DNA of 64,000 nt from Amoebophrya sp. A120 (lineage: Eukaryota > Protista > Dinoflagellata): NCBI GenBank assembly GCA_905178155.1, contig CAJINV010000004.1, positions 8,894,411-8,958,410 of the forward strand, written 5' to 3'. Positions 5,347 through 64,000 of the stretch are shown one piece after another. Each line of letters opens with the position of its first letter. The first letter of the stretch is position 1. The notes under the pieces were generated by a model. That model did not search any database. It saw nothing but the letters and a program-made list of their open reading frames with translations, and was not told the DNA's origin. Made by a program: the position numbers and the translations under genes.

Positions 5347-8300
5347 ATGGATCCCCCCAAAAACGATTTTGTCTCTACAGAAACCACGCGCATTGCCGAC
5401 GAGGTGTTTGCTTCCGTCGACGCAGAGCTCGAGGCGATTACGGCGCAATTGCGAAAGTGGGGCACAACTTCCAAGAAATCTGTTTCAAAATCGCCCGCGG
5501 TTGGGACGCCGACGAGTACTGCGGGTACGAGTAGGCAGCAATTACGACGGGATATCAGTGCAACGAAGGTAGAATTGGAACAAAGAGAACAAGCTGCGGC
5601 GGAGGTGAAAAGTACAGAAAACGCTGGGACGAAAGGAAGTCCAGAGCTACAACCAGGAGGAACAGCTGGATCCTCGTCCCCACCGTTTCTGTTTTACAGC
5701 GATCCGACGCAGGTGCTGCTGAATACAAAAGGAGCTCCGGTGCTAGACGACGGGCTATTTGCTTCGCAGGCGGAGTGGTATGGCAATATGAATGTTTTTT
5801 TTTCTCATGCGGAAACAACTGAGATGTCATTGTGAGAATCAGAGACATTCACTTGCAATGCAAAATTTGAATTCCTAAAACTTTTATATGGCCTTCAATG
5901 CAAAAAGAAAAACAACTATGCAGGAAAACAAAGCAAGACTTGCGTCTCCATCCCAAAACCAAAAACCGTATCCAATTTCCCCCACGGGACGGGAGAACGC
6001 CGGCTCTGATTGAGCACGAGATCGAAAAGGACCTGAAGACCTGGCCCAAGGACTGGGTGAAGGAAGTGCCGAAGAAACGGAAATTCGTTTTGAAAAGATC
6101 TTCCTCCGAGCAACTGTTGCTGTCAGCTGCATCCGGCACTGCTTCTCGGATTGAAGCATCAACGCAACACCAGAGTCGTGGTCTCGAATCTGCCACGGCG
6201 AAAAGGCAGTATAGAAAGACCAGTACTGGAAAATCAAGAACGCAAAAATCCGCAACAGGGTTAACGCGTTTCCACGAGGTCGTGCAAGACTGGGCGAAAA
6301 CGCTACGCAGCCCGGTGCAACCCAGTACGGTGAAAGGAGTCACGCGGAGCAGGAGTGTGGGCGCATTAGGTAGTCGGGGGAAAACACCGGTGAGCTGTGT
6401 GGACGACGACGGGGACCTGCAGGAGAGAAGTGTGCAGGTGCAGGTAAAGAATGAAGCGGCAATAAAGCCTGAAACCACTTCCGCAGTGAGGGAACAAAAA
6501 GAAGACCACAACTCTTCCAGTGAAGACGAGAATGATGCTGCGGATCATGAAAATAAACGGGAAGTAAAAAATAACCCACGTAGTTTGCTCTACTACACCG
6601 AGGAGAATACCACTACGAACGGAAACGACGGGGCCGACGACCAAGAAACTGCCCAACCACCACAAGACCAGCTCGCACAGCAACTCCAAAACCTCCAAAC
6701 CTCCCGACCCTCCCTCAGCCCCCTATTCCGTCAAGACAGCGTCGCGGAGCTCGTTTTTCAAGACCAGGAGTCCACCAAACCGGACAAGAAGCTCTTCAAA
6801 GACGACCCCACGCACAACCCGCACCACACCGCGACGGAGCGCGGCGATCCGAAACTGCACTTCGCGACCACGTCGGAAATCGCGTACCGACAAGTCAGGT
6901 CCAGTCAGGAGTTCCAGGATCTGTTCCTAGATTTGACCCAATCCTGGCCGGAAAAGTCGCCGCAGTCGAGGACGAGGGAAGCGCGAACGGAGCGGATTTT
7001 GAAACGACAGAGCGAGAAACGACCGCTGAAGGCGTGTTTGTACGATTCTGGGGAGACCAGCTACACGGGAAAGTACCCGTATCGTGGCGGAGAGGGGTCG
7101 GATTGGCAAGTGCGGGAGTACAACGAGGCGTTGCTGGCGCAGAAGCGGCCGAGGGAGTTAAAGTTAAACAACCCTGCGGTCGGCGTTGTGGACGACGAGT
7201 GTCGGGCCAGTCGGTTTCAGGGAAAATTGTACGGGGTGAGGAGAAACAGTGGGGTGACGAGCAGGTATAGGTTTATGTGCACCATGACAGATCTGATGCT
7301 ACCTAGAATGCGGTTTTGAGCATGACAGAGTCGCTCCCAAAATTTATCTACATAATGGCGATTCTTATCAGGAGCCGTTCCCGGTCCCGGTCTCGCTCCA
7401 ACAGTCCCGCGAAACAGAAGTCGCAGAAACGGGTCGGCAGTTGGGAACGAGCCAGGCAGCAGGGGGGACAGCGAGAACGACTAGCATCCCCGTTGAAGAG
7501 CGTGCACTTTTACCCAGAAGACGCAGGATCGAGTTTGTACGAGGAAAGCGTAACGGATTCGCAGGTCTTCTTCGACGGTGGGATCATACGACCTGCGGAC
7601 GCAGCGGAAGTGGACAGACCCTCGACCAAAAAAATGCCGAATCGCGCAGGAGGCACCACGTACAGGCCTGGCAGTTCCGCCAGTGGTGGCCCTGCAGCGG
7701 ATCATCGCGACCAGCAGTTCATTCCCAGGAGCAGTCAACACCAGAACAAAGCAAGTAGTTCGAGCTCCAGTAGTACCGCAGCTGCCGCTCCGTTCCAAGT
7801 CCCGCCCGGCAAAGTTCTCGTGGATCAGTCGGTCTTGAAAACGATCAAGCAGGAAGTTGCGGGCCTGCAAAAGTCTTATCAAATGTAAAAATGTCTGGGT
7901 CTGGAAGAATGCAAGAGTTGTGATGCAGGTTTTCCATGACCGATGAGGTCTGGAATGCGAGACCCAGCATGACAGATTCCTTGAGGTCTCTATCATGCCT
8001 GTCCTGCATGAGAAACTCCCTCTCAACTTGGTCAAAAGCGGACAGCTTTTGGTACTCACGCAACACAGATTTTTGCATCATTCAGATTTAGCATGACAAG
8101 TTCTAATCTTCCAGACCCAGACATTTTTACATTTGATAAGTCTCTCTCTGACACGAAAGCGCAGATTCCGCAGCTGCAGAAACTGCTGCAGGACGAGCAA
8201 GCGAAAGTTGCTTCCCTGCAGCGACGGAAGCAGACGTCGACTGATTTGCAACGGTTGGAGAAGGTTTTGGCGGATCGGGAACAGAAGATCCGAGAATTGG

Positions 8301-8581
8301 AGATCGCATCGTTACCGGTGCCGATGGGCCCGGAACTGCAGGAGCTCTGCTCTGAACTGACGAAAGCGAGGGAACAGAACCAGGGGCTGAGGGAACAGGA
8401 GGCGGATTGGCAGAACCGGGTGCGGGAATTGAGCGGGGTGATAGACGAGCAGAGGGAGAGGTTGTCGAAATACGACGACTTGCAGAGGAAGTGGACCCAG
8501 GCGGCGAGGCTGGATGAACAGAAAATGCGGGAATTGTACGGGAGGATAGAAGAGTACTTTTTATGGTTTTTGCTTGTGTAG
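5347..8581 (+). CDS. Hypothetical protein with RS-rich segment and C-terminal coiled coil
   Basis: ORFs 5347, 5898, 7316 and 8093 join in frame via GT-AG introns 5778-5923 and 7265-7371 and introner 7877-8138. Confidence 0.65.
5778..5923 (+). other. Canonical GT-AG intron
   Basis: gtatgg...ctatgcag; splicing gives AEW|KTKQD in frame. Confidence 0.7.
7265..7371 (+). other. Canonical GT-AG intron
   Basis: gtatag...cttatcag; splicing gives GVTSR|SRSRSRSNSP in frame. Confidence 0.7.
7877..8138. mobile_element. Introner family A (262 bp)
   Basis: Family A TIRs; TSD agtct; excision gives LQKS|LSDTKAQ; opposite orientation to the copy at 42321. Confidence 0.95.
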
Positions 8582-9500
8582 TCTTTTTAGAAGCTGCATG
8601 ATGTTGCTCATGTTGATGGCAATCAAACGCGGTGAATTATCACAGTGCCGCATCAGAAACAAATCCCTGTCACAGGCTCGAGGCGATAGTCGCTGGCGAT
8701 GTGCCCCGTCCGCAAGATTTTTCCACCACCGCTAATCCGGGATTCGAGCCACTTTCCAGCCGTGTGGGACAGCATCCATAAGCCTTTAAACTGCAACGTG
8801 ATGACGTAGCTGACAGAATCTAGTATGCCGATTGAAGTTCCTTGAAAGTTATAAAGCCGTACGCCGAAATAACGTATTAAGCCGAATCGCAAAAATGAAA
8901 TTTGTTTACTGTTTACCGCACTCATTTGGATTTAGGACCAGAGTATGCCGAATTGTACGTACGTGTTTGTCTAGCCTTCTGTATCACTTTGGAAAAATGA
9001 AAAGCTTAGCTGCAGGCGGGATTTGCGCAAAACTACAACTGGTTTTTGTTCGCTCAGCTCGCACTTACGGACTTCTTGTGGAAAACACCTCTATCGGTAA
9101 ATTTGCTCTCGGGTCTTGTATGAAAAAGCTGTTCGTGAAGATGGGGAAGCTTCTACACAAACCTCTGGGACGAGATAACTTCATTTCCAGGACCCCATTT
9201 TAGTACAGTTTTAGAAAAACTATGCGCACCACGCAACGTCTGCTACACCCAAGAACATTCTCGCGATTTCATGATAATGAACGTACTCAAGAACTACTAA
9301 AAGAACCCGCCACAACATTTTTCCACTCATCGCGCTACTTCCTCAACCCACAAAAGAACCACACTCGCTTCCCGAGACTAGGCCAAGACATAAAGTGTTT
9401 TTTTCCTCTGCATGAGCAGAAACTGAATTCTTTTTCCACAACAAGTTTAGCAGATTTAGCAAGAAACAACAAGAACCGTTCGCTTTACCAGCAAATAATC

Positions 9501-11437
9501 ATGAAGCGCGCCGCGTCCTCCTCTTCCGCCGCTGGCGCCAAGCGCCAGAAGCAGGGCCCAACCGGGAGTGTCAAGCAGTCCTGCGCGGGGGTTACCCGCG
9601 GCTTCGCAGATGCTCTCAGAACGGGGAGTGAAAAGTACCCGGAGCACGGTGCCGACCCCCCAACGAAAGCAACGGTTTCTTCAACGAAGAAGCCTCTCCC
9701 GACCAGGAATGCGACGACAAAAGAACTCACGTTTGTTGATTTCCCGGAATTCAAGCCGAATCTGACGCCGGGGGAAGTCGTCTTAATGGGTTCCTTCGGC
9801 GGCACGTATTTTCGCGACATCCACTCTGCCGTCACGATATGCATTGCAAACGTATCGTACTCGTATAAATGCATTACAAATTTCCTCAGCATGAGAAATA
9901 AAATTTGTAATGCGGATTTACCTTAAAGAAAAATATTTGTAATGCAAGACTTGCATTTATACGAGTGCGATACTTTTGCACAGGATACACGAAGCAGGCG
10001 CACAAGGGAAAACAAGTCGCGGCGGAGTTTCCGCTGGAAAGTTGGGGCTGGAAAAGCGGAAAGGCGATTTCCTTGCCATCCGGTGTTATGCATTGCAAAT
10101 ATGTCTGGGTCTGGAAACTTGTAATGCTAAAAGTGAATGAGAGTTCCACTGCAATATGAAGGCAAGCATGACAAATTTTTGGGCTCCCGTGTGTTGCGTG
10201 TTCCGCATAGCAAATTGCGTTTTTGCTGGACAGGTAAGAGGACCACTTCGTGCCCATGCATCACAGATTCTTGAGTCATGTCAGACATGCAACCAAAGGA
10301 GAGCAGGATACAAGGGCGGAGCCGGGCGAGGACCGGGATGCGATGGGAGTGCGCGGATCTTATCAAAAAGGTACGGCCTAAGGCCTCGGGAACGCCGAAT
10401 ATAACCGCGCTCTTCTTCGTGAAACGCCCACCGCTTTTTGCGCGATGGATAAGAAAAAAAATCAAAAGAAAATCAAGAAAAATCAAAAGAAAAAAAATCA
10501 AAAAGAAAAAAATCAAAAGAAATCAAAGAAATAAAAAGAAAAAGAAAGAAAGAAAAACTGCAAATCCATGCGCAGAGAGTTCAGAAAAAAAAAAAAAAAA
10601 AAAAGACATGCATGACAAATGTAGCAATCTTCCAGACCCAGACATATTTGCGTTTGATAGGTGTAAACGTCTCGCCCGGGGTGAGTGTGAAACAAACGAA
10701 ATTTGACGCGGAGTTGATGCTGCACTCGGATACCTACAGGACGACTGTTAACAAGTAACTACTTGATGTTCTTGATTTGGTGGTTACGATTTTTTGTCAT
10801 GCGGTTTTTGAAACATATGTCGTTCCTGTGATGCGCGCAAATCAATGCACACGACGGGCGGGAAAAAAAAATCAATCACAGGTTCGGCGTCAAGTGCGGT
10901 GGCTCTCTCTACATGTGGGAAGGGCACGGGTGGATTAACGAGATCGACCCCTATGGCTGGTTTCACTGGTATTGCCGGTTTTACCAGGGGAGGAGAAGTA
11001 CCGACGACGCGAGGCAGGTCCAACGGTGGTTGAACTCCGCGGGGCCGAAGGGACGCTTCAAAAATCAGTTGATGAATAAGTGCCAAGCGGAGGGTATGAA
11101 TTGCAAAAATGTCTGGGTCTGGAAGATTGCAACTTGTCATGGTAAATCTGAAGCATGCAAAAATCTGTGTTGCGTGAGTACCAGAAGCTGTCCACTTTTG
11201 ATCAAGTTGAGAGGCAGTTTCTAATGCAGGATAGGCATGATAGTGATCTCACGGAATCTGTCGTGCTAGGTCCTCCAATACAGATCATATGGGTCATGGA
11301 AAACCTGCACGACAAGGCGAGCAAAGTTCCAGACCCAGACACTTTTGCATTTGATAGCCGGGAAATCAAAAACCGACCCGAGCGTGTCGCCCGTGATCAG
11401 GCAGACTCTGCAGCACTGGGCGCTGGAGATCAAGTAG
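9501..11437 (+). CDS. Conserved protein of unknown function (PNLTP-GSFGGTYFR / DPYGWF-WYCRFY-GRR family)
   Basis: Motifs FKPNLTPGEVVLMGSFGGTYFR, NKFGVKCG, WINEIDPYGWFHWYCRFYQGRRSTDDARQVQRW and VSPVIRQTLQHWA are rebuilt after removing 3 introners and 1 GT-AG intron. Confidence 0.8.
9838..9987. mobile_element. Introner family C (150 bp)
   Basis: TIR tatgcattgcaaacgtatcgtactcgtataaatgca / ...gatacttttgcacaggata; TSD cacga; frame restored (AVT|KQAH). Confidence 0.95.
10087..10659. mobile_element. Introner family A carrying a nested poly(A) retroposon
   Basis: Family A TIRs; TSD ggtgt; 573 bp, or 252 bp once the nested insert and its TSD are removed. Confidence 0.9.
10292..10603 (+). mobile_element. 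Non-LTR retroposon fragment (SINE or 5'-truncated LINE 3' end)
   Basis: 9-bp TSD agacatgca (10283-10291 and 10604-10612); A-rich aaaatcaaaag repeats; terminal run of about 20 A. Confidence 0.8.
10755..10881 (+). other. Canonical GT-AG intron
   Basis: gtaact...aatcacag; restores conserved NK|FGVKCG. Confidence 0.85.
11095..11356. mobile_element. Introner family A (262 bp), diverged TSD
   Basis: Family A TIRs; flanks gaggg/gccgg; removing element plus 5 nt restores the frame. Confidence 0.9.
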
Positions 11438-20742: not shown

Positions 20743-23460
20743 GCTGGTTGGATCTACTACCGCAAGAACGCTTCTTGCATCGTCAGGGAGAAGAAGTGTC
20801 GCGACATCAGCGAAAACTCCTGCACCGTTGTTCTTCCTCCGTCGCCACCCGAAGAAACTTATCTTTTCTGGAATCACCACCTTCCTTGCCGTCCAAGAAT
20901 ACGCCCGGGCGCGCGCCCGAGCGGAGGCGCGGGAGCGGTTCTACGATGCGTGTAACGAATTCAAGGACAAGAAGCAGGATTTGCGGCGAAAGAGCAGGAG
21001 GGATTTGGATCAAATCGCCCCGACGACACGTTTAGGGAAAATAGCCTACGCGTTTTTGGAATGGGCAAGGCAGGTTTTTCGCGGCTTGCAGTTGTTCATC
21101 GTTTTCCTCCCCGCACTTCTAACCGCGGTGCCGTGCTTGGTTCTGGCGCCATTATTCGACATTGACAACCTCGATAGAGTAGAGCAACCCCTTTCCACCA
21201 AAGCCGAGGAGGTTTGGCTGGATGTCCTCACGAATTGTATCCAGCAGTCCGGCGCGATCTTGATCAAGGTGGCGCAGTACATTTCCCACCGCAGGGACCT
21301 GGTCGGGGATACGATCGCCGACAAATTCTACTATTTGAGGGAAAACGTGCCGGCGCACAGCTACGCGGAAACGAGAAAGATTGTGAAGGAGGATTTTGGT
21401 ATCGATTTGGATGCGGTTCCTGGCGGTGGTTCGGATGAGGAGGGTCAACAGAAAACACCGTCGACGCCAACGAACCATAATATCCATCTCACCGAGTTCG
21501 ACAAAACCCCCGTCGCCAGCGGCAGCATTGCGCAGGTGTACCGAGGGAGACTTGCGGATGACAATACCAATGAGGTCGCGATCAAGGTCCGGCATCCGAA
21601 TGTGGAGAAGCAGGTGGACACGGACTTGAAACTGGTGCATTCTGTTTGTTCTTTTCTGTCAAGTATCAAATGTACAAATGTCTGGGTCTGGAAGAATGCA
21701 ACTTGTGATGCTGCGTTTGGATTCCAGAAAAATCTGTATTGCATGAGTACCAAAAGGAATGTAATTTTTGCTACGCGGTGAGGGCATTTGTCATGCGGAA
21801 TAAGCATCAAGAAGCTCTCAAAAAATCTGTGATGCTAGGGCATGCATCACAGACATCATGGCTCATGCAGAACGTGCGTGACAAGTGTCAGAATCTTCCA
21901 GACCCAGACATTTTTCCAGTTGATATCAAGGTTTTCTTACTTCGAGTGGATGGAACTCCCGGTGACCATGGACGAATTTCGGAAGGTGTTACTGGATCAA
22001 ACGGATTTGCGAATCGAAGCGAAAAATCTGAAAGTCTTCCGGGACCATTTCGGGATCACGAAACAAGTAGACAGTCGTGGGGGAACAGATGATGAGACGA
22101 AGGAACTAGTTTCCGCAGCTACAATTGTCCCCGACGTGGAGCAGTTCGTCACGTTCCCGGAGCCGATCGCGGCGACGGAACGGGTGTTGATCGAAACTTT
22201 CGTCGATGATGCGAAGCCGATCTCGTATTTCATCGAGAATCCCTCGTCGTTGAATGAAGAAATCGCGAGGCTGGGGATGCAGACGATCAACCGCATGATC
22301 TGGCTGCACAACTTCGTGCACGCAGATTGTCATTCGGGGAATTTGTTTTTCCGAATAAAAGACCGGAGGAAGGAGCTGCAGAAACAGCGGAATGTGCTGC
22401 TGAGAACCGCCAGTCAGAAGTACAATGCGGACAGAGCAGCGGGATCGGAAGATAGGGCAGCAGGTGGACAACATACTGCAGTGCCCGGGATGCGGCCAGC
22501 GCCAGGTGGCCAGAATGCAGAGATGAGCCCAGGCAGCTCAACTGGAACTGCGAGCACTTCTCCCACCTCGACGTACTTCCAACTTTTCACCAGCCTCGCT
22601 TCCAACGCGGCGGAAGCAATTTCCCTCGAGTTGACGGATTTGGCCCAGTCCGCGGTGGAAAAAGCGTTTCTGTTCTACGATGAAAATTTCGTAAAGGATG
22701 TTCCTCCCTCGGACCAAATTTTATCCGCCGCCAGTCGCCTGCAGTCGAAAATGAAAACGCAATCTTCTAGTAGCACTTCCAAACACCACCAGCTCCCCAT
22801 CGTCGAGCCTCCGGAAAAGCGTTCCCTCCGGTTTTTTCGCAAGAAAGAGCACCGGCATTTGGACTATGCAGTGCAAAAGTAACGTAGTAGTATGAATTGC
22901 ATTACAAATTTTGGCAAGAAGAAAAGTGGGATTTGTAATGCTGTTTTACCGTAGGAGGAAGGTTTGTCATGCATATCTGCAATTACTTTTACTACGAGTA
23001 CGATGCTTTTGCACAGCATATGGACATCCAGATGGTGATTTTCGACGTGGGCATGGTCACCGTCCTTTCCGAGAAGGACAGAAGGAAGTTCATGAAACTG
23101 GTCAAGTCAATCATCACCCGGGACAGCAACGGCTGCGCGGAGATGCTCCGCGGGCTGTGCTCGTACCGGGAACAGACCAGCGCGAAAATGCGGGAGTGCA
23201 CGAAGGACATGCTGGTGTTTTTCGACGAATTAAACAAGCTCCCACTGCACAAAGTGAACGTCGGGGCGGCGTTGCGGGAAACTCTGAACATCATCGCGAC
23301 ACATAGACTGCAGGTGGAGGGCCATTTTGCGACGTTGCTGTCCAGTTTGATCATTCTGGAGGGGATGGCGAAAGACTTGGATCCGCAGATTAACATCATG
23401 GCAAGCACCGTGCCGTTCTTGATGAACCGAGCGGTTGAAACGTTCATGGAGGATGGATGA
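20729..23460 (+). CDS. ABC1/UbiB (ADCK-type) atypical protein kinase, probably mitochondrial
   Basis: IKVAQYISHRRDL, PVASGSIAQVYRG, VAIKVRHP, NFVHADCHSGN and IFDVGM motifs; Arg/Ser/Thr-rich transit-like N-terminus; 2 introners. Confidence 0.9.
21664..21925. mobile_element. Introner family A (262 bp)
   Basis: TSD tcaag; frame restored (LS|RFSYFEW); near-identical to 41666-41927. Confidence 0.95.
22865..23020. mobile_element. Introner family C (156 bp)
   Basis: TSD tggac; frame restored (HLD|IQMVIFDVG). Confidence 0.95.
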
Positions 23461-24445: not shown

Positions 24446-27400
24446 ATGTATGACGATTACAACGACCACGCTCCACCGCGACGCCCGCACCGCCCTCCGC
24501 GTCCGTCCGTGCTGGACCAGATTCTTGGCCTCTGCTGCAAACGCCCTTCGGGACGAGGGCGGAAGGGTCGTGGCAAGGGAAAGAAGGGGAAGGGGCGCGG
24601 GAAGGGGCGGGGGGCGGTGGCGGATCCGGAAGATGATTTTTTTGTCGAAGATGATATCACCAGTATGGAGGAAGAACTCCCAGCACCGGCGAAGCAGATT
24701 GTATGCTCCCGGCAAATATTTAATATTAAAGGGGTGTCGGAATCGTATGCTCCTCGTTGTATAGAATTTTTGCAAGATATGTGTGTTACTTGTATGACAT
24801 GAGACTTCTATTTCTTGACGTTCGCTGTCGCTGCCTGAACTAGCATGAGGACAAAAAATTGCAGTTTTTTCTACCGATGAAAAATATGCCTACTTCGCTT
24901 AAATGCGATTTGTACTTCACTTTTTCTGAAAAAGAAAAACTTTATCCCACACTCCTTTTGCACGGTCGATAAGGGCAAAAAGGCAAAGGGAAGATGATCA
25001 AAGGCAAGGACAAAGGCAAGGGGAAGAAAGGCAAGCCCTTTGTTGTTGAGGAAACCGACGAGGAGGCGCTGACCAACGAGGAGAGCGCAACGGACGCCGA
25101 GGAAGACTCGGCAGAGGAGAGCGAACGGGATCCCACCCCTACCTACCAGTTTATCAAATGCAAAAATGTCTGGGTCTGGAACAAAGCAACTTGTCATGCT
25201 AAAGTTGAATCATGTAAAAATCTGTGTTGCATGATTACGAAAAAATAATGCCCACTTTTGACCAAAGTGAGAGGGAGTTTGTCATGCAGGACAGATCGAT
25301 GATAGAGATGTCACAGAATCTGTCATGCTAGGTCCTGCATTCCAACCCGCATGCATCATCGAAAACCTGCATGACAAACCTTGGAGTCTTCCAGACCCAG
25401 ACATACTTATTTGCATTTGATACAGTTCACCATGCGGCAAATCGTTCTTGGCGCGGTACTATCCTGTGCAAAAGCATCGTACTCGTAGTAATCGCAAGCA
25501 TGCATTACAAGTCTCCATCCCAAGGCAAAGCAGCATGACGAATTTCATATATCATGCTGAGCTAATTTGTATTGCAATTGCTACTAGTACGATACTTTTG
25601 CAGTTCATATGTACTGGCGGCTCTGATCGGCGGCGCTTTCGCCGCCATCATCACTGCCGTGGCGATGGACAGCTATCAAATGCAAATATGTCTCAGTCTG
25701 GAAACTTGTGATGCTGAGTGGTGCATGACTGAAATACTTCCCCATGCAGCTACGCATGACAAGTTACCCGCACTACACTTTCTCAGGCGGAGTCTGCATG
25801 AGAAACTGCACTTTTGTACTTATGACAACAGAGGGTATCTTTTTGCTAGTCGTGGTGCAACACAGATTTTACAGGAGTGCAGGGCTAGCATTACAAGTTC
25901 CATGCTTCCAGACCCAGACATATTTGCACTGGATAACAGCGGCGACGAAACAAGTTCTGCCTCATCTTCCACGTCTTCGGGTACCGCGCCGACCCCCTCG
26001 CCGACCCCGGCAACAACCAGTCCGACGCCCTCGCCGACCCCGGCTACGACCAGTCCGACGCCCTCGCCGACCCCGGCTACGACCAACCCGACGCCCTCGC
26101 CGACCCCCGTCTCGCCGACACCCGCCTCACCGACCCCGGCGCCCGCGCCGACGCCGTCCGGCACTTGCCAGGCGACTTTCACGCAGCCTGCGCCGCCCGC
26201 GAATCCTGACAGTACTACTTACATACTGCTTTTTCAAGAACTTGTCAGCTGGTACTCTATGATTGAATCAAAACTATGCGCAAAAATGTTGACATCGTGT
26301 GAAGAGCCTGACTGTCAATCTGAAACTGATGGTAGAAAATGAGAGCATGAGCAAATAAGGTAAGTACACAAATCTGATCTTCTCAGTGACGCCACCTGTG
26401 ATCGATGCGGACCTCGAGTGTGACGCGAGCGAGTACGCGAACATTGCCAATGCGCCGGCCGAGTGCGCCGCGTACACGACCCGGCCGACGGGCGGCAACT
26501 TATCCAGGAAAAAACACCTCCCATCCCCATCCATTTTTTGCATGACAAGTAGTGGATTTTATGCATGTTTTGCATGACAAATTGGGTTGGGATGGGTGTT
26601 TTTTCCTGGATGCGACTCCGTGAACCCCTATGAACTGATCCCCCTGGCCTGCCACGCGCCCAACTGGGACATTGTGAACAACGTGCAGCTATGAACTGCA
26701 AAAGCATCGTACTAGTAGTAATCGCATTACAAATTTGCTCTCATGCTGAGTTACCTTGAAAAAAAGATTTGTCATGCATAAATGCGAGGATTACTACGAG
26801 TACGATACTTTTGCACAGAATAGCAGCCGGCCATCGAGCTGGTGCAGAACTCCCCTGACTTTTTGTCCAAGTACGTGACGTATGGATTGCAAAAGTGTCT
26901 GGGTCTGGAAGATTGCAACTTGTGATGCTGCATTTGGATTCTACAAAAATCTGTATTGCATGAACAGCAAAAGAGGCCCAGCTTTTGCGACGGCGAGAGG
27001 ACATTTCTCATGCGGTATAGGCATCAGGAAGCCATCTCCATCACAAAATCTGTGATGCTGGGGCATGCGTCACAGACATCAGGAGTCATGCGAAATGTGC
27101 ATGACAAGCCTTGCATCCTTCCAGACCCAGACATTTTTACACTTGATATGACACAGCACACCATGACCACGAAGGAGGCCATCGTGGGGCAGCTGCAGCG
27201 CGCGCAGCAGACCGCGGCCGCGAAGTGGGTCAGCGACATGGCCACCATCAAGGGCGGCGACATGCCGCAGGGGACCATCTCGAAGTGCAGCACCCGAACC
27301 TTAAACGGCGTGCTGCAGGCGGCGCGGAAGAAGGGGTACAAAGCGCTGACCGTGATCTGGTACAACCTTCCCAACCGGGACTGCAACGCCGACGCGAGTA

Positions 27401-30400: not shown

Positions 30401-31010
30401 ATCTGTGATGCTAGGGCATGCATCACAGACATCAAAAGTCATGCAAAACGTGCATGACAAAGAACCTGGCAATCTTCCAGACCCAGACATTTTTACATTT
30501 GATAGGGGTGGGACCCCACGGCGAAGTTCTGCAACGCGAACGTCGACCACATGTGCGAGATGGCGGTTATGGGATTCTCAATTGTTACATTCTCAACTGT
30601 TACATGAATTTGTCATGCAAAAGCACCATCATCATCCTCACGCTCACGATCAAGCTGCTCCGCATGACAAATTTGCGAAGGGCTGAGCCGTGCCGAAATC
30701 TGCGCCAGCCTTGTAATGCAAAAGGCGCAATCTTCCTCCTTTCACTTTTGCCAGTCTTGCATTACAAATTCATGTAACAGTTGAGAGTGTAACGTTTGAG
30801 AACTTCATAGCTGTGGGCGACGTGCAGGGCCTGTGGGCCGGGAGCGGCACCCCCATCGAGATCCCGGACGCGGGCCGGTTTTCGCCCCACAACATCATCA
30901 CCCTGGCGACCAACGCTGCGATTCTGGGCATCGGGGACTCGTCCGCCCAGTACACGGGTTGCTTGAAAGCTACGGACGCGGGGCAGTTCGAAGTCGTCAC
31001 GTCCAGGTAA
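24446..31010 (+). CDS. Glycoside hydrolase family 6 cellulase with N-terminal membrane anchor and Pro/Thr linker (start may be 24226)
   Basis: After removing 15 introners and 1 GT-AG intron: TM IVLGAVLAALIGGAFAAIITAVA, PT linker, YNLPNRDC, LEVDSLPN, YMDAGHGHWLG, RGFAINTSNY, IVDVGRSG, WCN, WLKTPGEVDG and PDAGRF motifs. Confidence 0.92.
24702..24971. mobile_element. Degenerate introner (270 bp)
   Basis: tatgctcccggcaaa...aaggggtgt / acactccttttgcacggtcgata; TSD decayed; element plus 5 nt removal is in frame. Confidence 0.55.
25152..25422. mobile_element. Introner family A (271 bp)
   Basis: TSD cagtt; frame restored (YQF|TMRQ). Confidence 0.95.
25460..25609. mobile_element. Introner family C, reverse orientation (150 bp)
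   Basis: tatcctgtgcaaaag...ttttgcagttcata; TSD ggtac/tgtac; splits the TM helix. Confidence 0.93.
25674..25935. mobile_element. Introner family A (262 bp)
   Basis: TSD acagc; frame restored (MDS|GDET). Confidence 0.95.
25988..26160 (+). repeat. Coding tandem repeat (~33 bp unit) encoding PTPSPTPATTS linker
   Basis: ccgacgccctcgccgaccccggctacgaccagt repeated about 3.5 times. Confidence 0.9.
26212..26386 (+). other. Canonical GT-AG intron
   Basis: gtacta...ttctcag; join NPD|MTPPVID is in frame. Confidence 0.75.
26501..26612. mobile_element. Introner type G (112 bp, the smallest)
   Basis: TIR tatccaggaaaaaacacc..catccc / gggatgggtgttttttcctggatg; TSD caact/cgact; frame restored (GN|SVNPY). 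Confidence 0.88.
26690..26822. mobile_element. Introner family C (133 bp)
   Basis: TSD gcagc; frame restored. Confidence 0.93.
26881..27148. mobile_element. Introner family A (268 bp)
   Basis: TSD tgacg/tgaca; frame restored (YVT|QHTM). Confidence 0.93.
27821..28415. mobile_element. Introner family B with nested insertion (595 bp)
   Basis: tatgctgagtaaaaatgtccccacccca / tggggtgggg...tttttactcacgata; TSD gaagt/caagt; frame restored (SGK|SFISQMRGFA). Confidence 0.9.
27901..28187 (+). mobile_element. SINE-like retroposon with (ATG)n tail
   Basis: 13-bp TSD atgcgcatcccca (27888-27900 and 28188-28200); 3' tail catgatgatg. Confidence 0.75.
28465..28680. mobile_element. Introner type H (216 bp)
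   Basis: TIR tatgacagtgcacaactccccctcctcctcatttgt; TSD gcaac; splits the NTSN|Y motif. Confidence 0.95.
28864..29128. mobile_element. Introner family A (265 bp)
   Basis: TSD cccgt; frame restored. Confidence 0.93.
29217..29532. mobile_element. Introner family E (316 bp)
   Basis: TIR ...gaaaaatcc..cctccccatatc / gatgtggggagggggtatttttt..ata; TSD tgccg/cgccg. Confidence 0.9.
29590..29858. mobile_element. Introner family A (269 bp, TAC start)
   Basis: TSD cgtgc; frame restored (DDV|PSMSN). Confidence 0.92.
29956..30164. mobile_element. Introner family F (209 bp)
   Basis: TIR tatccaggaaaaaaagtgtgtaagtgtaa / ttacacttacacagttttttttcttgcata; TSD tgatc. Confidence 0.93.
30237..30504. mobile_element. 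Introner family A (268 bp)
   Basis: TSD ggggt; frame restored (GTG|WDPT). Confidence 0.95.
30568..30809. mobile_element. Introner type I (242 bp)
   Basis: ~50-bp TIR tatgggattctcaattgttacattctcaactgttacatgaatttgt; TSD gcggt/gctgt. Confidence 0.92.
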
Positions 31011-51142: not shown

Positions 51143-53592
51143 ATGATGCTCCTCACGTTTCTGCGGAGCCTGGCGCCCTGTGGCGATGACGATACATGCG
51201 CGTCGTTCTCGTTTGGGCGAAGCAAGGCTGGGTCGAAGGAATACAACGATGGCAGCGATGAAAAAGAAGGTGTCGGGGCTGCAGGTGGCACTAATGTCGG
51301 CACGACCACCAGCCCCGAAGTCGTGGTTGCTTTCAACCGCCGTCCTACCGCCCCGAGCGAGCGCAATGCCACGCTGCGACAATCAAATGAGATACTCGCC
51401 GGGAGATCTATCCAGGAAGTTCTGCGGCGGCGCTGCCTCGAATACATCTACGCACGAGAATATCGTGAGAAAAAAGTGTTTCACTGTAAGGCTTTTGCAG
51501 GTTTTGCATCACAAGTTTGTTCTACATGACAGAGAAAATTTGCCATGCCAGGTTCCTAAGGGAAAACACAGCTAAAAATCCACTGTCTTGCATGTGTAGC
51601 AAGACAAATACTTCTGTGTTCAATTTTATGCATCACAAGTTTACAGTGAAACAGTTTTTTCTTGCGATAGAAAACTGGACTGGTTCCCACCTGATGTCGC
51701 GGAGAAGATGCAGGAGATAATATTGAAAGGAAAAACTCCCCCTCCCCATATCGAAAAGGCATGTTTCCGAAAATTTGTGTTGCTGATTTGAGGTCACAAA
51801 TCACATTTGTCTTGCAAGAAGACAAGTGCAAAAGCTTCGCCCCTTTTATGGAAGCGATTTGTCATGCTGTTGGGCCTAAAGGGCAGCCGTTTGCCATGCT
51901 GAGCAACTAGGCCGATACGCCCCTGCATAGCCTGGGGATCTGGTCGCAATGCCTTCCTGCAATACAAAGCTGATTTGTGTACACAAATCCAGCATCAGAA
52001 ATTTCGTTTTGATATGGGGAGGGGGGATTTTTCCTCTCGATAGATAAGCATGGTTAGAAGTACAGCAGAGGAAAATCTTAATCTTCAAAATAATGCCGAC
52101 GCAAAGGAGCTTGGTGTTTCATCTGTTATTTCCCCCGGCGACCCCGATATCGAATGGCTGAAGGTGGCCACGACAAAAACACTGTCCCGGACGAATTCTG
52201 GAAATGTGCAATTAGAGGATTCCGAATCGTGGATCGACTCCTTTCACCTCCGTTACGAGATCGACGAAATTGAGTCTCTGGTGATGCAGCTTCTCAAAGG
52301 TGTTCGTGTTGAGCCGGAAGATGGTCCGAACGCTTTGTGCGAGGTCTTAAACGAGCTGCAGTGCCTGCCGAGAGTCGCGCCCGGGCTGGTGAAGAAAGAC
52401 TGCGCGGAATTTGGCAGTTGGATGTCCGCGGATGCGGTCACCGTGAAGCAAAACGGCTTAAGATTGCTGTTGTTCGAATGCTTACCGCTGGCAACTCGTG
52501 TACAACAATACGTTCAGTCTTCCGCTTCGAGGACACTACTGGGCCAAGAGCGGGCGGGGATTGAGCGGGAGCTCTGGTACCAGCGGGGACGGAATGAGAG
52601 GCTGGTATCGGCAGGGAAAGAGCATGTCCGGCCGGAGCAGCTCGTAGCGCCGATAACTAGTAGACAGGAAGAAGGCGGTAAGAACGCCTTGAAAGATGAG
52701 GATGGCCAGAGCTTGAAGGGATCACTTTACCTGGAGAAGTATGCAGAAATGCTCGTTTCGTCTTACTCCTTTTTGACGGATGCCTCGCTCGGGGAGATCT
52801 TTGGTGCTCTGAACAAAGTTGTCCAAGAACAAAGTAGCGGCCACCATAATTACCGAGAAGCGCATGTACCTAAGCATCTCGATGCCGCCCTTGCCAGCTA
52901 CGTTTTGGAAGTCTGGCGCGAGTTTTCTGCTCTCCCCCCAGACCTTCAGGGAGACGGAGTTCATCTCTCGGGCTCGAACCACCTTGGTGCAGTAGTTGTG
53001 CAGAACACATACCGCAAAAAGATTCTGGAACGTCATTGGTGGGAGAAGGAAGGCCCGGAGTTGCGGTCAAAGATACTTCATCTTGATAAAGACCAGAAAA
53101 ACTACCCCTCGCTCACAGAGGCTTTTCGGCGCATTGAGGGTCTGGAAAGGGGTTTAACCATCGAGCAGAGGGCCCAACAGCAGGTGAACAGATTGCTACG
53201 GGAACATGGGGACCAAGAACAGAATATGAACTGCAAAAGCATCGTATTCGTATAAATGCATTACAAATTTCTTCAGCACGAGAAATAAAATTTGTAGTAA
53301 TGCGGATTTGCCTTAAGAAAAAGATTTGCATTTGTAATGCATGACTGCAATTACCACAAGTACGATACTTTTGCACAGGATACAGAAACTGCTCGTCGAC
53401 CTCTCATCTACTTCAGGACCGGAAATAAACGAGGTTGAGGCGCAGAGGAGGAAAAAAGCCTTTCAGCAGCTGCAACTGCAGTGGCATCCCGACAAGGAGC
53501 CAGATCCGGAGAAGAGGAAAATCGCGACCGCCGTGTTTCAATTACTCCAAGACGAAAAGCCACGGTTTCTTGGCGAAATAAACTGTTCATAA
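51143..53592 (+). CDS. Protein with C-terminal J (DnaJ) domain; true start uncertain
   Basis: RKKAFQQLQLQWHPDK..ATAVFQLL; exons join in frame across introners 51461, 51721 and 53225. Confidence 0.75.
51461..51669. mobile_element. Introner family F (209 bp)
   Basis: TIR tatcgtgagaaaaaagtgtttcactgtaa; TSD gagaa/gaaaa; same length as the copy at 29956. Confidence 0.92.
51721..52042. mobile_element. Introner family E (322 bp)
   Basis: TSD gataa; frame restored (QEI|SMVRS). Confidence 0.95.
53225..53382. mobile_element. Introner family C (158 bp)
   Basis: TSD cagaa; frame restored (EQ|KLLVDL). Confidence 0.95.
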
Positions 53593-54010: not shown

Positions 54011-57000
54011 ATGGCGCACCGAAAAACAAAGAGGAGAAAACCTTTACCATGTTCCGTGACAGCCGCCACGATCTCCACTGCAGCTGCATTAGCGCTCCTC
54101 GCGAGAGTTGTTCTGTCCGAAAAGCCTTTTGTTCTTTCCTCCCAGAACCAAAACTGGTTTCCCGATCACGACTGCAGAAATTCGGAGAAATGGAACCACT
54201 GGCGGGAACAAATCCGCGACCAGCCCACGTGGCTGCGGCCGGAGAACACGAAGGTGCAAGCGGGAATTGTGGACTTCTACTTGAAGCAAAATCCATCTGG
54301 ACAAGACCAGGCGTACAACAGCGACCCGGCGGACCCAAGTGCTCTCCTCCCCCACGAAGGGAAGATGTATGAGGATTGTTATCTCGGCGCCCTCTACTCC
54401 GGCCTGATCGTCATGCTGACCTGCTGGCTGCGACAAGACTCGTGCTACTTTGAGAACGAGCAGAAACTGCAGAGAATGTTCCCGCCTTTAAGAGTCCTGA
54501 TCGGGACGGAGTGGCCGATATTGGAGACGTTGGCGGAGACAGATTGGTCCGCGAGTCCGAGCGCAAAGGATCTGCAAGTGACCTGCGATTTTCCCACAGA
54601 GAAAAAACCGCTCGTGGACTGGACACGGTTCAAGGAAGTATAGAAAATGGTACTTCTTCTTCTAGTTCTATCTTCTTCTGTAGTACCTGCGTCGTGAAGG
54701 CTGTTCTTGGTGTTGGCTTCTGGAATTTCAATTTCAGTGCACCGCGTGTGCATGTGGTGCATGAGAAGTGTTGCTGTGTACTAGCAGGGCAGTCATTTTA
54801 CATCACAAATTCTTTCTAGGTTTTCACGACCTCGCCAAATTCCTGGTTCGACTACGCCGTGAAAATCGCCTACGGGAAAGAGCTGGAACAAAACACCCAA
54901 GTAGCCATCGCCGAATGCCCCCTTGGGTTCCTGACCGCGAACATTGTGAAAGCGTTGCTCTGCGCGAACACGGAGTCCGTGTGTTTCCCCGCCCACGCCG
55001 GCGCAGTGGATCAGGTGATGGAGAACTTGAGCTTCCACGCCCTGTTCGGGGGTACCTGGCCCATTGGCACTCTGCTGGTGCATTTACGACGGCAGGTAAA
55101 AAGGCATGGGTACATGTTATCAAAGGGAAAAATCCCCCCTCCCCATATCGAAACGAAGTTTCTGATGCTGGATTTGCGTACACAAATCAGGTCTGTCTTG
55201 CTGGAGAGGACTGCAGGCATATGCCAAGCCTGGGCCGAGAGGTTTTGACGTAGGGGACTAGCATGACAGACGTCGGCCCTGTAAGCCCAACAGCATCACA
55301 AACCGCCGGCATAATGCGGCGGACTCTCTGGCTTTGCCTTCTTGCAAGACAGACAGGATTTGCGACCTCAAATCTGCATCACAAATTTTTAGACGGATGC
55401 GTTTTCAATATGGGGAGGGGGGATTTTTCCTTTCAATACATGTTGGGGTTTTCCGAGAAAGAACTGGCGGATCAGTTCTACAACGATGAACATGTAGAAG
55501 TGGACAATACTAAAGTTCGTGATGACACAGACACCAGCGTCGGCGATTTGGGTCCATCTTCATCTTCTGGCAGGATACATGCAGTCACCACGCTTTTTGG
55601 CGCTGCATCTACTAGTTCGAGATCAAGCAGAACAGCTGCACGACTACCAACAGAAAATTGGTGGTGCAGGAGGAGTGGTGGGGAAGCAGATTTGATGTTT
55701 TCTGCAGCGCCAGAATTTCAAGGTTTTGAATTCCGGATCTCCGCCTTTTCCCCAACCATGCAGAACTTTTTAACCTTGGTCGCGAAACGCAAGCTCTGCG
55801 CCGTGACCTGGGACATACGAGATAGCATCGTTTTGACCACGATGGTGTACGGGAAAAAATTCCACAAGTACATCACCCCCTTCCTCCAGCGCGTCGACGC
55901 GGTGGGAGTGAAATTCTTCGTCCTGTGGTGCTTAGACGAAGAAGCGCTGTTGCAATGCGAAAGGACGACAGCTGCATTGACGCCTTCAACATCTTCGTCC
56001 ACGCGGATGGAGGCAAGCCCTGGCGAGTGGTTTGAGCAGAGCAACATGTGGGAGCTGTACGGGGTGAAAAAGCCAGACGGAGAAGGCGGGACGACCAGGG
56101 GCAGCTCGGAGAGGAACTACTACGAGGACCCTAGCAACAGAAAAATTTTCTGCGTCCGCGGATTCACCAAAGGAATTCTGAACAAGTTTTCCCTGCCGTT
56201 GGTCTTGCTGAATTATAAGCTGCACGTTTTGTGGGTGGATTTCGACACGTTTCTGTTCCGAAATCCAGTGGAGGAGGTGGTAAAGCAGATCGGTGAAATG
56301 GCGTTGCGGGAGGATATTCTTGAAGAAGCAGAAGAGGTGGAGCAGCAGGGCACCAGTACTGGTGGGTCTGGAAGAACAGGAGCACCTGCGAGTTTGCCCG
56401 ATCAACCGGATAAACTACACGAACTGTCACACGAGCCCCCAGGAGCGGCTGAGCGTGCCGCCATTTTCGAAAATTTTCCCTTCGACTTCATCACAGAAGA
56501 TGAAAAGGACCACGAAGCGTATTGGAAGAAACTACATCGCAATGGTGGAATAATAAATACCGACATGGAACAACAACAAGGTCAAGCGCCGTCTGATGCA
56601 AAAATTGATATAGCACAAAAATCCGAAAGCGAAACCCCAGCAACTCCCGACCTTCTTCTCTCCGGCAGTTTCTCCACCGAGTGCATCAACTCTGGTGTCA
56701 TTTTCTTCCGCTCGCGACCGAACGTCCGCCGGTGGCTTCTTGAGGTTCTAAAATGGATGTACGATCACCCCTACGAACACGATCAGAAGTGTGTTTCCGC
56801 GTTTCTCGGTGCGGGGGAGCGGGTCGCGTTCCCGCACGAAATGCCACAGGTGTTGTTTGAAGACGATAATTTAATATTTCGAGCGGCGTCGAGGACGAGT
56901 GCGAGTGGAGGTGGACTACGACGAGATGGCACGACAGCTGCTGGTGGTCGTGCGACCTCCAAAAATGACGCCGGCACGAGGACACAGCATGAAGTCGTTC

Positions 57001-57961: not shown

Positions 57962-60011
57962 ATGTCCGTTCTTCACGACGAAATGAACCCACCAGCGCCA
58001 ACCGCTGCTGCTAACGACGCCGATGGGAAGAAGAACAAGTTTTCCGCCCAAGATAAAACCTCCGGGAATTATGGGCAGCAGCTGCACGAGGACAACTTCG
58101 ATAGTGCGAAAGTGGTGAAGCGGTTAAATATGAGAACCACGATTGTGTACGTGTCGAAAAAACCGAAGTACCTTGGTGGGGTCGCGTACCATCTGAAAGA
58201 AGAGGACTGGGACTACAACCAGCACGGTGTCTGGACGGATTTCGGCCACGGCGTGACCAGTTTCCCGAAGAAGGACAAGCCGGACCACACGATCAGCGTT
58301 TTTGATTTGCTGCAAGCGATTGAAGAAGCCTGCAAGAAATGCGAAGACAGCTTGGAGCAAGTGACCCAGCTCCACGACCAACCGGCGCTGCTGCAAACCG
58401 ACCCGGAATTTTCCATCGAGGATATGCATTGCAAAAGTATCGTACTAGTAGAAATTAATAGCATTACAAATTTTTCCAGAAGGAAAAATGGAACTTGTAA
58501 TGCTGAATAAGCTAAGGAACCAGATTTGTCATGCATGACTGCAATTACTACGAGTACGATGCTTTTGCACAGGATAGAGGAGGTTCGGAAACGAAAACGG
58601 GAGATTCAGGACGTCTGCCTGTACGCGTTTGACCGGTTGAGGTATGGACGGTTGTTGGTGGAGACGCTGGAGTTTATCTTGAAAAAGCACGCGGACCAGA
58701 AAGAGGAGTTTGAAACGTTGCAGGAAAAGGGGGAGGAGTGCGGGAGAGTGATTAGCGGGTACAAAATGGAGATATTGGAATTGGATAAAGCGCTGAAGGA
58801 GGTACAGGTGGCGCAATACGACGAAATACTGCAGATTCATGGTATCTATTTGTGTATTTCTATTCATACATAAGGTCATGCTTTGTTGTTTGTTGTTCTG
58901 TCTTTTCAGTGACCGGATAGAAATTTCATCTCGATGACGAGAAAACAGGATGCATTGATTTTTTATACCTGCATATAAATAGTTGACAAAATAAAGACAA
59001 AAACAACTCTGGATCATATCAGAACGGAAATCCGACTGGCTGTGCCCCGTCTGTGCCTACCGCAACTACCAAAGGAACAAAGTTTGCCGCGAGTGCATGA
59101 AGCACGGGCGGACAGTGTATAATAACTGCACCGCCCCGGGGCCGCAGGAGGACGAGAATCTTCAAGAGAAGAGAGCTGCGGGTGCACATTATCGGGATGA
59201 ACAATTACCGACGATTCACGAAGAAGAAGAGGAACATGATCTTTGTGAGCAGAAGGACGTGGACGTCGCGCAGAAGGACGAGCTCCACATGGAATCGCAG
59301 CAAGAGGTTCTACTTCTAGATGCGGTCGTCCAGGACAATTTACACGAAGATGATGAACATAATTCGAAGCAACCAGACGAGGAGCAGAAGTCCAACATCA
59401 AGGCGGCAATATTAAAGCAACAAGAAGAAGATGAATTCGACGTCGCAGGGACGAGCCGCGAGAAAAAAGTCCCGAATTATTGTTCTACGACGGGGGCAAG
59501 TAGTACAAGCCCCGCCTGGGTACTACGACAACTACAGGCTCCTCACTCGGGACGAGACAACTCCTCGTCGTCCACTGCTACCCCGGCTGAGACGGCCAAG
59601 AAGGAGAATGATCCGGTGGAGATGAACAGAAAACCGTTCGGCATGAAGAGGCTGGGTGGTTTACTCCCGTTCCTCAGCAAGGCTGCGTCGATCCAAGCAG
59701 CACCAGTAAAGACAGATGACCTCGTCCAATGTGGCACTGTTTCTCTTTCCAGAAATGCAGGAGGAGGAAGCACCAGCAGCCGTAGTAGTAGAGCACCGCT
59801 GGATCATAGGAATGATACTGAAAATGAAGCAGTCTCCAAGCACCCGGATAAAAGTTTTTCAAAGCCTGGGTTCATTCGCATCGACGGGCGGTGGTACCCG
59901 GATTTTTATACGGGTTCAAGGGATGAACAGCCGAGAAATACTACGGAGAACAACAAGGTCGAGAATAATTACCGGAAAAGCGGAAGCTCAAGCTCTTCCT
60001 TAAAAGTGTAA
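57962..60011 (+). CDS. Coiled-coil and RanBP2-type zinc-finger protein (5' part; probably continues at 61111-62382)
   Basis: After introner 58423 and GT-AG intron 58842-59022: DWLCPVCAYRNYQRNKVCREC fits W-x-C-x2-C-x3-N-x6-C-x2-C. Confidence 0.75.
58423..58576. mobile_element. Introner family C (154 bp)
   Basis: TSD gagga; frame restored (SIE|EVRKR). Confidence 0.95.
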
Positions 60012-61110: not shown

Positions 61111-61126
61111 GAATTATCGAGAATAA
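60111..61126 (+). pseudogene. 3'-truncated duplicate of the glycosyltransferase N-terminus (no catalytic domain)
   Basis: Same MAHRKTKRRK start; after intron 60744-60925 it runs into a stop 5 codons past the duplication breakpoint. Confidence 0.7.
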
Positions 61127-62382: not shown

Positions 62383-63056
62383 GAGATGCGGAAGTAGCGG
62401 AAGAATGTTAACACGAGGTTCGACATGACACAAGAAGAGAAAAGAAAGCTCTCGGGGGCATCCAAGATGACGACAAGGAACTTACAGATAAAGGGAATGT
62501 CCGCTCTCACGGGAATAAAGTTAATTGTGAAAAACTTGTGTAAAAACGCGCGCTAGTATGCTCTGGTTTTGTAATAGTAAGTACTTACTTACTTTTCCAG
62601 CGACGGATGCGGCTTTTGTGCGAGTTCCCATGCGCACAAAAAGGATGCAGCTCTGATGCGGGCCACAGGGTAAAAATTGTTCGCTGTCGGAGGAGGTGTT
62701 CTTGGTAAATTCTAGAGAAACATACGACGTTTGTCTACAACATCTACTAGGAAGTGTAAGTGTTGACCCGAACAATGGTATCAAGTATATGGAGGAACGA
62801 GTTTACTCGAAAAGATATAGACGAAAGTGTTATGCTTTGCGAATCGCAAAAGTCGTATAGTTTTCTGTCTGTGTCTGTGCAGGCATCGTACAATTTTCGT
62901 CTGCGTTGTACAGCAGAATTTCGCCTTTCTCTTTCCAGTCGTGTACAAGATTTTTTTGTGTGGCAATTATACGCTTCGTCCAAAAAACATCATCAACGAG
63001 CTTCAATCCGACGCCACAGAGCTGCAACATCTTCGAGCCCAAAGCCGTCCAAAATT

Positions 63057-64000
63057 ATGGCCACCACAAACGTACAAGGCCCCCCCAAAGGTGCCCCCGC
63101 TGGTGCCCCCAGTGAACAATCTACGACCACCTCTGTCGAGCTCTTCGTGAGGGTTTGTGAAAAAAAAGAGGTCCAAGACTGGTACTACCCCGACGACGAA
63201 CGGTCCGCCGAGTGGAACGAGGAGCACGAAAAGATCGAGAAACAGATCAAAAAGCAGTTCGAAAGGCTCGGGTGCGAGATCACACAGTACAAACGGGAGT
63301 TGAATCACGCCGGGAATGAGTTCGCGACCGTGTCCTTCGAAAAAGAGGAAGACCAGGAATTTTTCCTCATGGCCTGCAAGCGCGAGCATTTTCGGAGCAA
63401 ACTCTCGCCCAACCCGTATCCTGTGCAAAATAAGTATCGTACTCATATAAATGCAAGTCTTGCATTACAAATCTTGTTCTCAAGGCAAATCCGCATTACA
63501 AATTTCATTTCTCATGCTGAGAAAATTTGTAATGCATTTATACGAGTACGATAACGATACTCATACTTTTGCAATGCATAACCCGGACTACACGTCGATC
63601 TGCGTTTTCGGAAAACACCACCACATCACCGAGGCGGTGCGGACCTTGCGGGTGGCGAAGGAGAAAGCGATGTCTGCGGTTTGGTTTCTCCAGGAAGAAA
63701 CGACCCTTCATAACCAACCGTCCGACGCTGTCATTGTGGAGGAGGAAAGGGGGGACGCGGAATACCGGCAGCGGGTCTTGCGCGCGGCCATAGATCACGC
63801 GAGGAAAAAGGTGGACGAGGCTGTTGAGAACAACGGGAAGGACTTTATTCCGCAACCGGTGGCGGACCACCTCGCAAAGGAGATTAAGGTTGCGCAAGCG
63901 ACTTACCAACAGAATCGGTTGTTGATTATCGATCTGGAAAAAGTAGTAGCTCCGGCAGAGGTGGAGGAAAAAGCCGAGGGAGGAGCGGCTCCAGGTACTG
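63057..64000 (+). CDS. 3'-partial hypothetical protein, possible degenerate RRM-like N-terminal domain
   Basis: ATG at 63057; VELFVRV...EFATVSFEKEED; frame stays open to the window end after removing introner 63417. Confidence 0.6.
63417..63580. mobile_element. Introner family C, reverse orientation (164 bp)
   Basis: TSD acccg; frame restored (SPNP|DYTSIC). Confidence 0.95.

Follow-up and report, generated by a model that had tools for sequence, protein, structure and literature searches.

The closest described system to the one treated here is that of the introners of Amoebophrya sp. A120 itself (Farhat et al., 2021; PMC7789003), for which the available text of that paper gives a repeat starting with TAT, seven variable nucleotides and AAA, non-canonical borders, a hairpin, support from RNA and short direct repeats, of 5 bp in the legend to Fig. 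S19. In that text the word orientation is used only of gene blocks, and it contains nothing on the direction of an element relative to its host gene, a fixed removal of the element plus 5 nt (element+5), the register of the cut or the match of an intron start N|TAT to a canonical donor. This study concerns a stretch of 64,000 nt of the A120 genome (contig CAJINV010000004.1, positions 8,894,411 to 8,958,410; 'the window' is this whole stretch), in which TAT...ATA inverted-repeat elements of the same families lie in both directions within plus-strand genes. RNA joints show exact element+5 removal for forward copies and for copies of unclassed orientation, and indirect evidence supports the same removal for reversed copies.

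Introner-like elements that are introns in either direction are known from Polarella glacialis and Aureococcus anophagefferens (bioRxiv 10.1101/2020.10.14.339549), where they are likewise DNA transposons with target-site duplications (TSDs); in the available part of the preprint their GT, GC or GA donors and AG acceptors come from the element or from a constrained TSD, whereas in A120 the TSD is unconstrained and 159 of 169 elements lack GT/GC..AG borders. The three either-orientation classes first described there (Huff et al., 2016, is cited in that preprint and in PMC10228655) are biased one way, unlike A120 family A, which is near 50:50 (p = 0.14). The nonconventional introns of euglenids, as far as described in the available text of PMC12501133 and PMC11282704, share with the A120 elements non-GT-AG borders, pairing inverted-repeat ends, direct repeats at the borders and a likely MITE origin (MITE: miniature inverted-repeat transposable element). 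Comparison by inspection did not find the Euglena signature, N3CDG...CH'GN5-6|R, in the A120 elements, in which the stem ends in TAT/ATA with overhangs of 1-2 and 3-4 nt and the families are recent and of high identity. The non-canonical introns of Fritillaria borealis (available parts of PMC11282704 and PMC13326754) are also MITE-derived, with a terminal inverted repeat (TIR) and a TSD; they are removed by an altered U2 spliceosome with U1 kept and prefer the borders AG-AC and AG-AT, in contrast to the A120 elements, which show no preferred border dinucleotide.

A scan for paired ends found 39 elements in the window, of 112-689 nt (median 262 nt), each between 5-nt direct repeats (the TSDs); all start with TAT (one with TAC) and finish with ATA (two with ATG), an invariance partly built in, as the TAT start was itself a search criterion. 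The proteins of the window match A120 records (100% identity to CAD7947343.1 for the exon at 27151 and 98% identity to CAD7947333.1 for that at 7355), and orthologues were found in A25, AT5 and Perkinsus. The elements fit the published A120 introners: positions 11-13 hold A in 156-165 of 169 elements, an exact 5-nt repeat flanks 204 of 267 elements from a wider sample of loci (tests for 3-, 4- and 6-nt repeats gave 5, 3 and 0, with overlap resolution favouring 4-5 matches), and repeated families, non-canonical borders and absence from RNA were all observed. They also have the TIR, TSD and short size of a MITE and carry no transposase gene. Stops occur in all three plus-strand frames of 36 of the 39 window copies. 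Rfam returned 0 matches, and no candidate autonomous partner, in the form of an element longer than 900 nt with family A ends and a TSD, was found in 167 short loci.

These 167 loci (about 272 kb) were returned when a collection was scanned for a terminal motif of 23 letters built on the family A end, so that other families are undersampled; the 80 loci that are listed all derive from assembly JACKZZ01. They contain 267 elements, 239 of which are unique with at least three of five TSD matches; for 130 of the latter the host strand could be called with confidence, and the other 109 were left out, giving a working set of 169 strand-called elements (39 from the window and 130 from the loci). A first strand caller was right for 29 of the 39 window elements and was replaced by a fixed-window caller that was right for 39. 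The elements on which the argument turns are the following.

7877..8138, minus: reversed family A introner in a plus-strand gene; TSD AGTCT; terminal repeat of 26 nt without mismatch; 94% reverse complement of 42321; CAD7947333.1
42321..42582, plus: family A introner, reference orientation; TSD GCAGA; gene with a Pfam PP2C match on the downstream exon
25460..25609, minus: family C introner, reversed, in the glycoside hydrolase family 6 (GH6) gene; TSD GGTAC/TGTAC; joined in CAD7947343.1; joint not printed
25674..25935, minus: family A-related introner, reversed, divergent; TSD ACAGC; RNA depth; joined in CAD7947343.1
63417..63580, minus: family C introner, reversed; TSD ACCCG; interior orientation and open frame
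9838..9987, plus: family C introner, reference orientation; TSD CACGA
33287..33441, plus: family C introner, forward; TSD GATTT
58423..58576, plus: family C introner, forward; TSD GAGGA; below the stricter clustering cut
55118..55438, minus: reversed family E introner of a nucleotide-diphospho-sugar-transferase-like gene; TSD CATGT
51721..52042, plus: family E introner, reference orientation; TSD GATAA

Orientation was called on interiors, with 35 nt of terminal repeat stripped at the ends. The inversions that an earlier note on this DNA had read from the sequence all hold on this measure. The family A copy at 7877-8138, which is 94% identical to the reverse complement of 42321-42582, has an interior similarity of 0.948 reversed versus 0.533 direct; the family C copies at 25460 and 63417, compared with 9838, 33287 and 58423, give 0.63-0.77 reversed versus 0.46-0.55 direct, and the family E copy at 55118, compared with 51721, gives 0.73 versus 0.59. 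Further reversed family A copies in the window lie at 390, 10087 and 25674. The count of orientations proposed in that note, made on the strand-called copies, gave 60 forward and 44 reversed for family A (11:4 in the window and 49:40 in the loci; p = 0.14 against 50:50), 9:8 for family C, 6:5 for family 2 and 1:4 for family E; none of the 1708 family A similarity edges was inconsistent in orientation, and 18 of the 169 elements were left unassigned. The placement of the host genes on the plus strand was likewise confirmed, by a codon score that prefers this strand at 39 of 39 window junctions (the score, trained on plus-strand reading frames of the window with the own gene left out, is partly circular) and, for the tested genes, by Pfam matches and homologues. 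All of the genes examined across 1-64000 lie on this one strand, resembling the co-oriented blocks reported for A120.

Deleting element+5 opens the plus-strand frame at every named copy, as the claim that the frame is restored in both orientations had implied. Among the three length classes, element+5 was the best at 36 of the 39 window elements (the exceptions being 11095, 25674 and 51461) and at 151 of 186 elements with enough flanking sequence, for which 62 are expected by chance. The frame by itself does not show the removal of 25674, since a retained copy would also leave it open. In 70 of the 169 elements the length of element+5 can be divided by three, which is driven by the lengths of family A and is not clearly significant.

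Four sequencing runs were mapped on 25050-31000, in the GH6 gene with its 14 elements, for which the remaining features are as follows. The raw runs X9 and X10 placed 7 and 6 reads there.

24976..31008, plus: glycoside hydrolase family 6 gene; Pfam GH6; 14 elements (families A and C both ways) and one GT-AG intron
25152..25422, plus: family A introner, forward; joined in CAD7947343.1; joint not printed
26212..26386, plus: intron with canonical GT-AG borders; the RNA contig that skips it also skips elements
26501..26612, orientation unclassed: short element; RNA skips 117 = 112 + 5; TSD mismatch at position 2, left letter kept
26690..26822, plus: family C-like introner, forward; RNA skips 138 = 133 + 5; weak interior call, forward-type ends
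26881..27148, plus: family A introner, forward; RNA skips 273 = 268 + 5; TSD mismatch at position 5, right letter kept
27821..28415, plus: family 2 introner with a nested insert of about 310 nt; RNA skips 600 = 595 + 5
28864..29128, plus: family A introner, forward; RNA skips 270 = 265 + 5
29217..29532, plus: forward family E-like introner; partial retention among the RNA contigs; kept in CAD7947343.1
30237..30504, plus: family A introner, forward; RNA skips 273 = 268 + 5
30568..30809, orientation unclassed: element; RNA skips 247 = 242 + 5; TSD mismatch at position 3, left letter kept

The RNA status of run X3 is a guess; the run behaves as spliced RNA, since the GT-AG intron is skipped in the same contig as elements. 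All ten of the element joints printed for X3 skip exactly element+5, and all ten belong to forward or unclassed copies, none to a reversed one; a further 712 joints lie outside the printed set, which contains none for 25152, 25460, 25674 and 29217. Run X1, which is DNA-like, has 0 of 11 RNA joints and its contigs cross the borders between exons and elements; it is a single run that may be the window's own sample, and contigs can drop rare forms.

For the reversed copies, the claim of the earlier note that introners are removed in both orientations is supported indirectly by RNA depth (25674), NCBI gene models (7877, 25460 and 25674) and orthologues (55118), and for 63417 the evidence is the frame, which is open for 218/139 codons after element+5 removal. 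The X3 depth (contig depths throughout, as distinct from splicing rates) is 11.6 at 25869, inside the reversed copy 25674, versus 266.9 for an exon record that begins, in its listed part, at 25936, the base directly following this element. The 262 unlisted letters of this record would reach 24976, the exon start of the NCBI model, if all three upstream elements are removed; element 25674 is also 262 nt long, but its low interior depth excludes an unspliced record. In the bin of the reversed copy 25460 the X3 depth is 196, below the 267 of the exon record, and for the forward copy 29217 the retained contig has a depth of 17.7 versus 385-398 for exon records. The NCBI model CAD7947333.1 crosses the reversed copy 7877 exactly as element+5 removal predicts, and CAD7947343.1 does so at the reversed copies 25460 and 25674; both are gene models, distinct from reads, of a project that used RNA-seq, and three of the GT-AG introns predicted by our gene finder agree with CAD7947333.1. 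The junction of the reversed copy 55118 aligns without gaps to four of four homologues, including those of A25 and Perkinsus.

When all of the elements and the GT-AG intron are removed, the GH6 gene becomes an open reading frame (ORF) of 737 codons, in which the first 583 residues are identical to CAD7947343.1 and residues 139-735 are 58% identical to the AT5 orthologue. CAD7947343.1 retains 29217, which truncates the GH6 protein, and the AT5 orthologue continues beyond this point; the annotation looks wrong here, the orthologue and the RNA depth indicating that 29217 is usually removed.

With respect to where the removal signal lies, GT/GC..AG was found in any of six registers in only 10 of the 169 elements, the other 159 thus lacking U2-type borders, and the TSDs have the composition of the coding flanks, with no excess of GT or AG. 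Over 20 positions, the base profile of the 5' ends of the 169 elements matches that of their reverse-complemented 3' ends (all p > 0.1); for the ends of family A tested by side, one of 22 tests gave p = 0.014. The folding check suggested in the earlier note gave a predicted terminal stem that is equal in both orientations (family A medians of 22.7 and 22.3 of 26 pairs, p = 0.37), and at least 12 terminal pairs are predicted in 162 of 163 folded elements, a count inflated by the choice of elements through their paired ends. In 25674 the TAT:ATA pairs have a predicted probability of 0.11, and yet this element is removed. TAT-N7-AAA is shared between families. The copy 27821, of 595 nt, is removed whole with its nested insert, which therefore does not block removal. 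The signal is thus likely to lie wholly in the mirror-image ends, within the terminal 30 nt or so.

This agrees with the proposal of the earlier note that the information is symmetric, and places it in the ends; the step from removal in both orientations to the lack of directional spliceosomal signals does not follow, because a terminal inverted repeat presents donor-like and acceptor-like words both ways and the two-way introners of Polarella and Aureococcus use spliceosomal sites. Another of its suggestions, an internal motif acting on both strands, failed as a fixed-strand signal. The motif GCATnA[CG]A, repeated on both strands, is dense in the elements (13.5 per kb, compared with 3.2 for the canonical introns predicted, 0.11 for exons and 0.34 between genes), and it could serve as a two-way splicing signal, as a branch point or an enhancer; we give this almost no credence, as the motif changes strand along with the element and lies, depending on the family, some 40 to 150 nt from the 3' end, and as a sense-strand copy is missing from four of six forward family 2 copies, while the forward family 2 copy 27821 is removed in RNA. 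By inference, a transposase site at the DNA level is a better fit. The motif is about 30 times denser in predicted GT-AG introns (for example 43407-43583) than in exons and about ten times denser than between genes; canonical introns may be decayed introners or may share a DNA-level signal with them.

Several other candidates for a signal were discarded. Symmetric removal of N-TAT...ATA-N (element+2), which would keep the frame and mimic GTAT/TAG, is ruled out by the ten of ten printed joints at element+5. A cryptic CACAG near the 3' end of family C is unused at 26690, the sole C-like copy with a printed joint. The frequency of G before TAT and after ATA (0.30 and 0.34) equals that of the flanks, which leaves no selection for it; a mirror asymmetry seen in the target site at TSD positions 2/4 (p = 0.0001) agrees with the purine skew that the flanks also have; and the position-1 excess of TSD mismatches, 11 of 25 among the single ones, becomes weaker, at 15 versus 7 (p = 0.13), when double mismatches are included.

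Joints with mismatched TSDs show how many TSD letters stay on the 5' exon: at least one at 27821, at least two at 26501, at least three at 30568 and at most four at 26881. Assuming one fixed register, we infer that three or four letters are kept, i.e. that the cut falls 1-2 nt before TAT. In register 4 the intron would begin N|TAT, which corresponds to positions +2 to +4 of GTAT, the most frequent canonical donor of this genome, and could be supplied by either of the element's ends; GTAT is the donor of 12 of 28 GT-AG introns predicted by a gene finder that contains no donor motif, versus 3.9% of all GT. The canonical acceptors are A-rich and have no polypyrimidine tract.

Several points weigh against this correspondence. 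The spliceosome normally needs the canonical +1 G and a terminal AG, and both are absent here, since there is no excess of G before TAT and no excess of AG at any register. Position +5 also differs, being C or G in the elements versus mixed in canonical donors, and of the 28 canonical introns predicted, roughly half show atypical donors and could be miscalled. The register may be three in place of four; a search at locus L016 for a sequence that would separate the two found only an ORF of the same contig and a paralogue, neither of which spans the junction. The legend to Fig. 3 of PMC7789003, as available, moreover describes splice sites that are variable relative to the hairpin.

In the explanation that we favour, non-coding TAT...ATA inverted-repeat transposons lie either way in coding exons, flanked by a target duplication of 5 nt, and leave the RNA together with one TSD copy; the intron start N|TAT, supplied by either end, would be read as a donor, and the stem of 22 pairs would position the 3' cut 4 nt beyond ATA although no AG is there. 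According to the available text of PMC7789003, 83 of the 89 proteins of the spliceosome are kept in A120, along with U2, U4, U5 and U6, with U1 undetected. That the removal is carried out by a spliceosome that lacks U1 and takes its guidance from the terminal stem is, in our judgement, an even bet, the role of the spliceosome being a proposal. It is conceivable, at somewhat less than even odds, that no directional sequence is needed at all and that any sequence closed by a TAT...ATA stem would be cut, in either direction and with any content, 1 nt upstream of the stem and 4 nt downstream of it, either by a U1-less, AG-independent spliceosome or by a new nuclease-ligase. A spliceosome-independent, structure-guided machine that cuts and joins at fixed offsets from the stem, as proposed for the nonconventional introns of euglenids, is a rather unlikely but serious alternative: it accommodates the 159 of 169 elements without GT/AG borders, the symmetric ends and the interior that tolerates insertion, and the 5' overhang, shorter than the 3' one, resembles the N3 and N5-6 of Euglena, where, according to the available text of PMC12501133, inverted-repeat ends were required in knock-in tests and a circular excised intron was reported. 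It is opposed by the match of N|TAT to positions +2 to +4 of the canonical donor, if register 4 applies, by the nearly full A120 spliceosome and by the 15% of canonical introns that share the repeat layout (PMC7789003, in its available text), hybrids being rare in Euglena.

The terminal repeat could also be read as sequence only, with the spliceosome recognizing words in it (TAT, and TTTT-N7-ATA at the 3' end) directionally and the stem an unneeded by-product of transposition. TAT-N7-AAA is indeed common to the families, also in the available text of PMC7789003, the two-way Polarella introners have splice sites supplied by element and TSD sequence in the part of the preprint that is available, and 25674 is removed despite its low TAT:ATA pair probability; we nevertheless consider this improbable, as the 3' cut falls 3-4 nt into a TSD of free sequence, where no word marks it, and as at least 12 terminal pairs recur in 162 of 163 folded elements, with the inflation by repeat-based selection mentioned above. 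Excision from DNA in the expressed life stage or nucleus, as for the internal eliminated sequences (IESs) of ciliates, would mean that RNA never holds the elements. The TA-like ends and the indifference to orientation would be expected of IESs in general, and the present data are contigs, which drop rare variants, with one DNA-like run. The joined form is absent from that run, at 0 of 11 RNA joints, and its contigs cross the exon-element borders; the retained copy 29217 is present at low depth in the RNA-like run, and PMC7789003, as far as its text is available, validated introns by RNA-seq on DNA assemblies. DNA excision is therefore very unlikely.

Three other family A copies of the window are as follows.

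390..641, minus: family A copy, reversed; orientation clustering and frame
11095..11356, plus: family A copy, forward; 85% complementary to 7877; TSD matching at 3 of 5 positions
21664..21925, plus: family A copy, forward, in an ABC1 kinase domain; Pfam ABC1 29-82 upstream and 88-203 downstream

Some elements of the window themselves carry inserts. The insert of about 310 nt within 27821-28415 (about 27897-28210) has a 13-nt flanking duplication and is removed with the introner; a relative of it occurs as an RNA-like contig with a depth of 315, and the long TSD suggests a retroposed element. At 42633-43321 a family C element is split by an insert of about 535 nt that starts with TG, ends with CA and has a 4-nt duplication, a candidate for a solo long terminal repeat or a Ginger-like element. 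The reversed family A element at 10087 is 573 nt long, with an insert of about 300 nt that has an A-rich tail and is, by appearance, like a short interspersed nuclear element. In the transferase-like gene that hosts 55118, the first exon is tandemly duplicated (54062-54614 and 60165-60720, 95-96% identical), and the reading frame of the duplicate copy stops shortly after its second exon begins.

The elements, their hairpin and the open question of their mechanism are already published in the available text of PMC7789003, as are two-way introners in that of the Polarella preprint, and the 2022 method of Gozashti, in the part available, allowed matches in opposite orientation. The literature search found no statement on two-way removal of the Amoebophrya non-canonical elements, on the register or on N|TAT, although figures, datasets and subscription papers may hold one. 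Orientation-blind removal thus adds a new constraint to a system that was already known. How tens of thousands of non-GT-AG introns are removed without a detectable U1 small nuclear RNA was left open by the genome paper and by a review of 2024. Orientation-blind removal of exactly element+5 would confine the signal to the terminal 30 nt or so and rule out the interior and the target sequence, and it yields two points that existing RNA-seq could test, a definite register, of 3 or 4, and N|TAT as a hypothetical donor. If this is true, transposons with a 5-bp TSD would be free of mutational effect in coding exons, and the approximately 30,000 copies may be explained by no insertion site or direction being forbidden.

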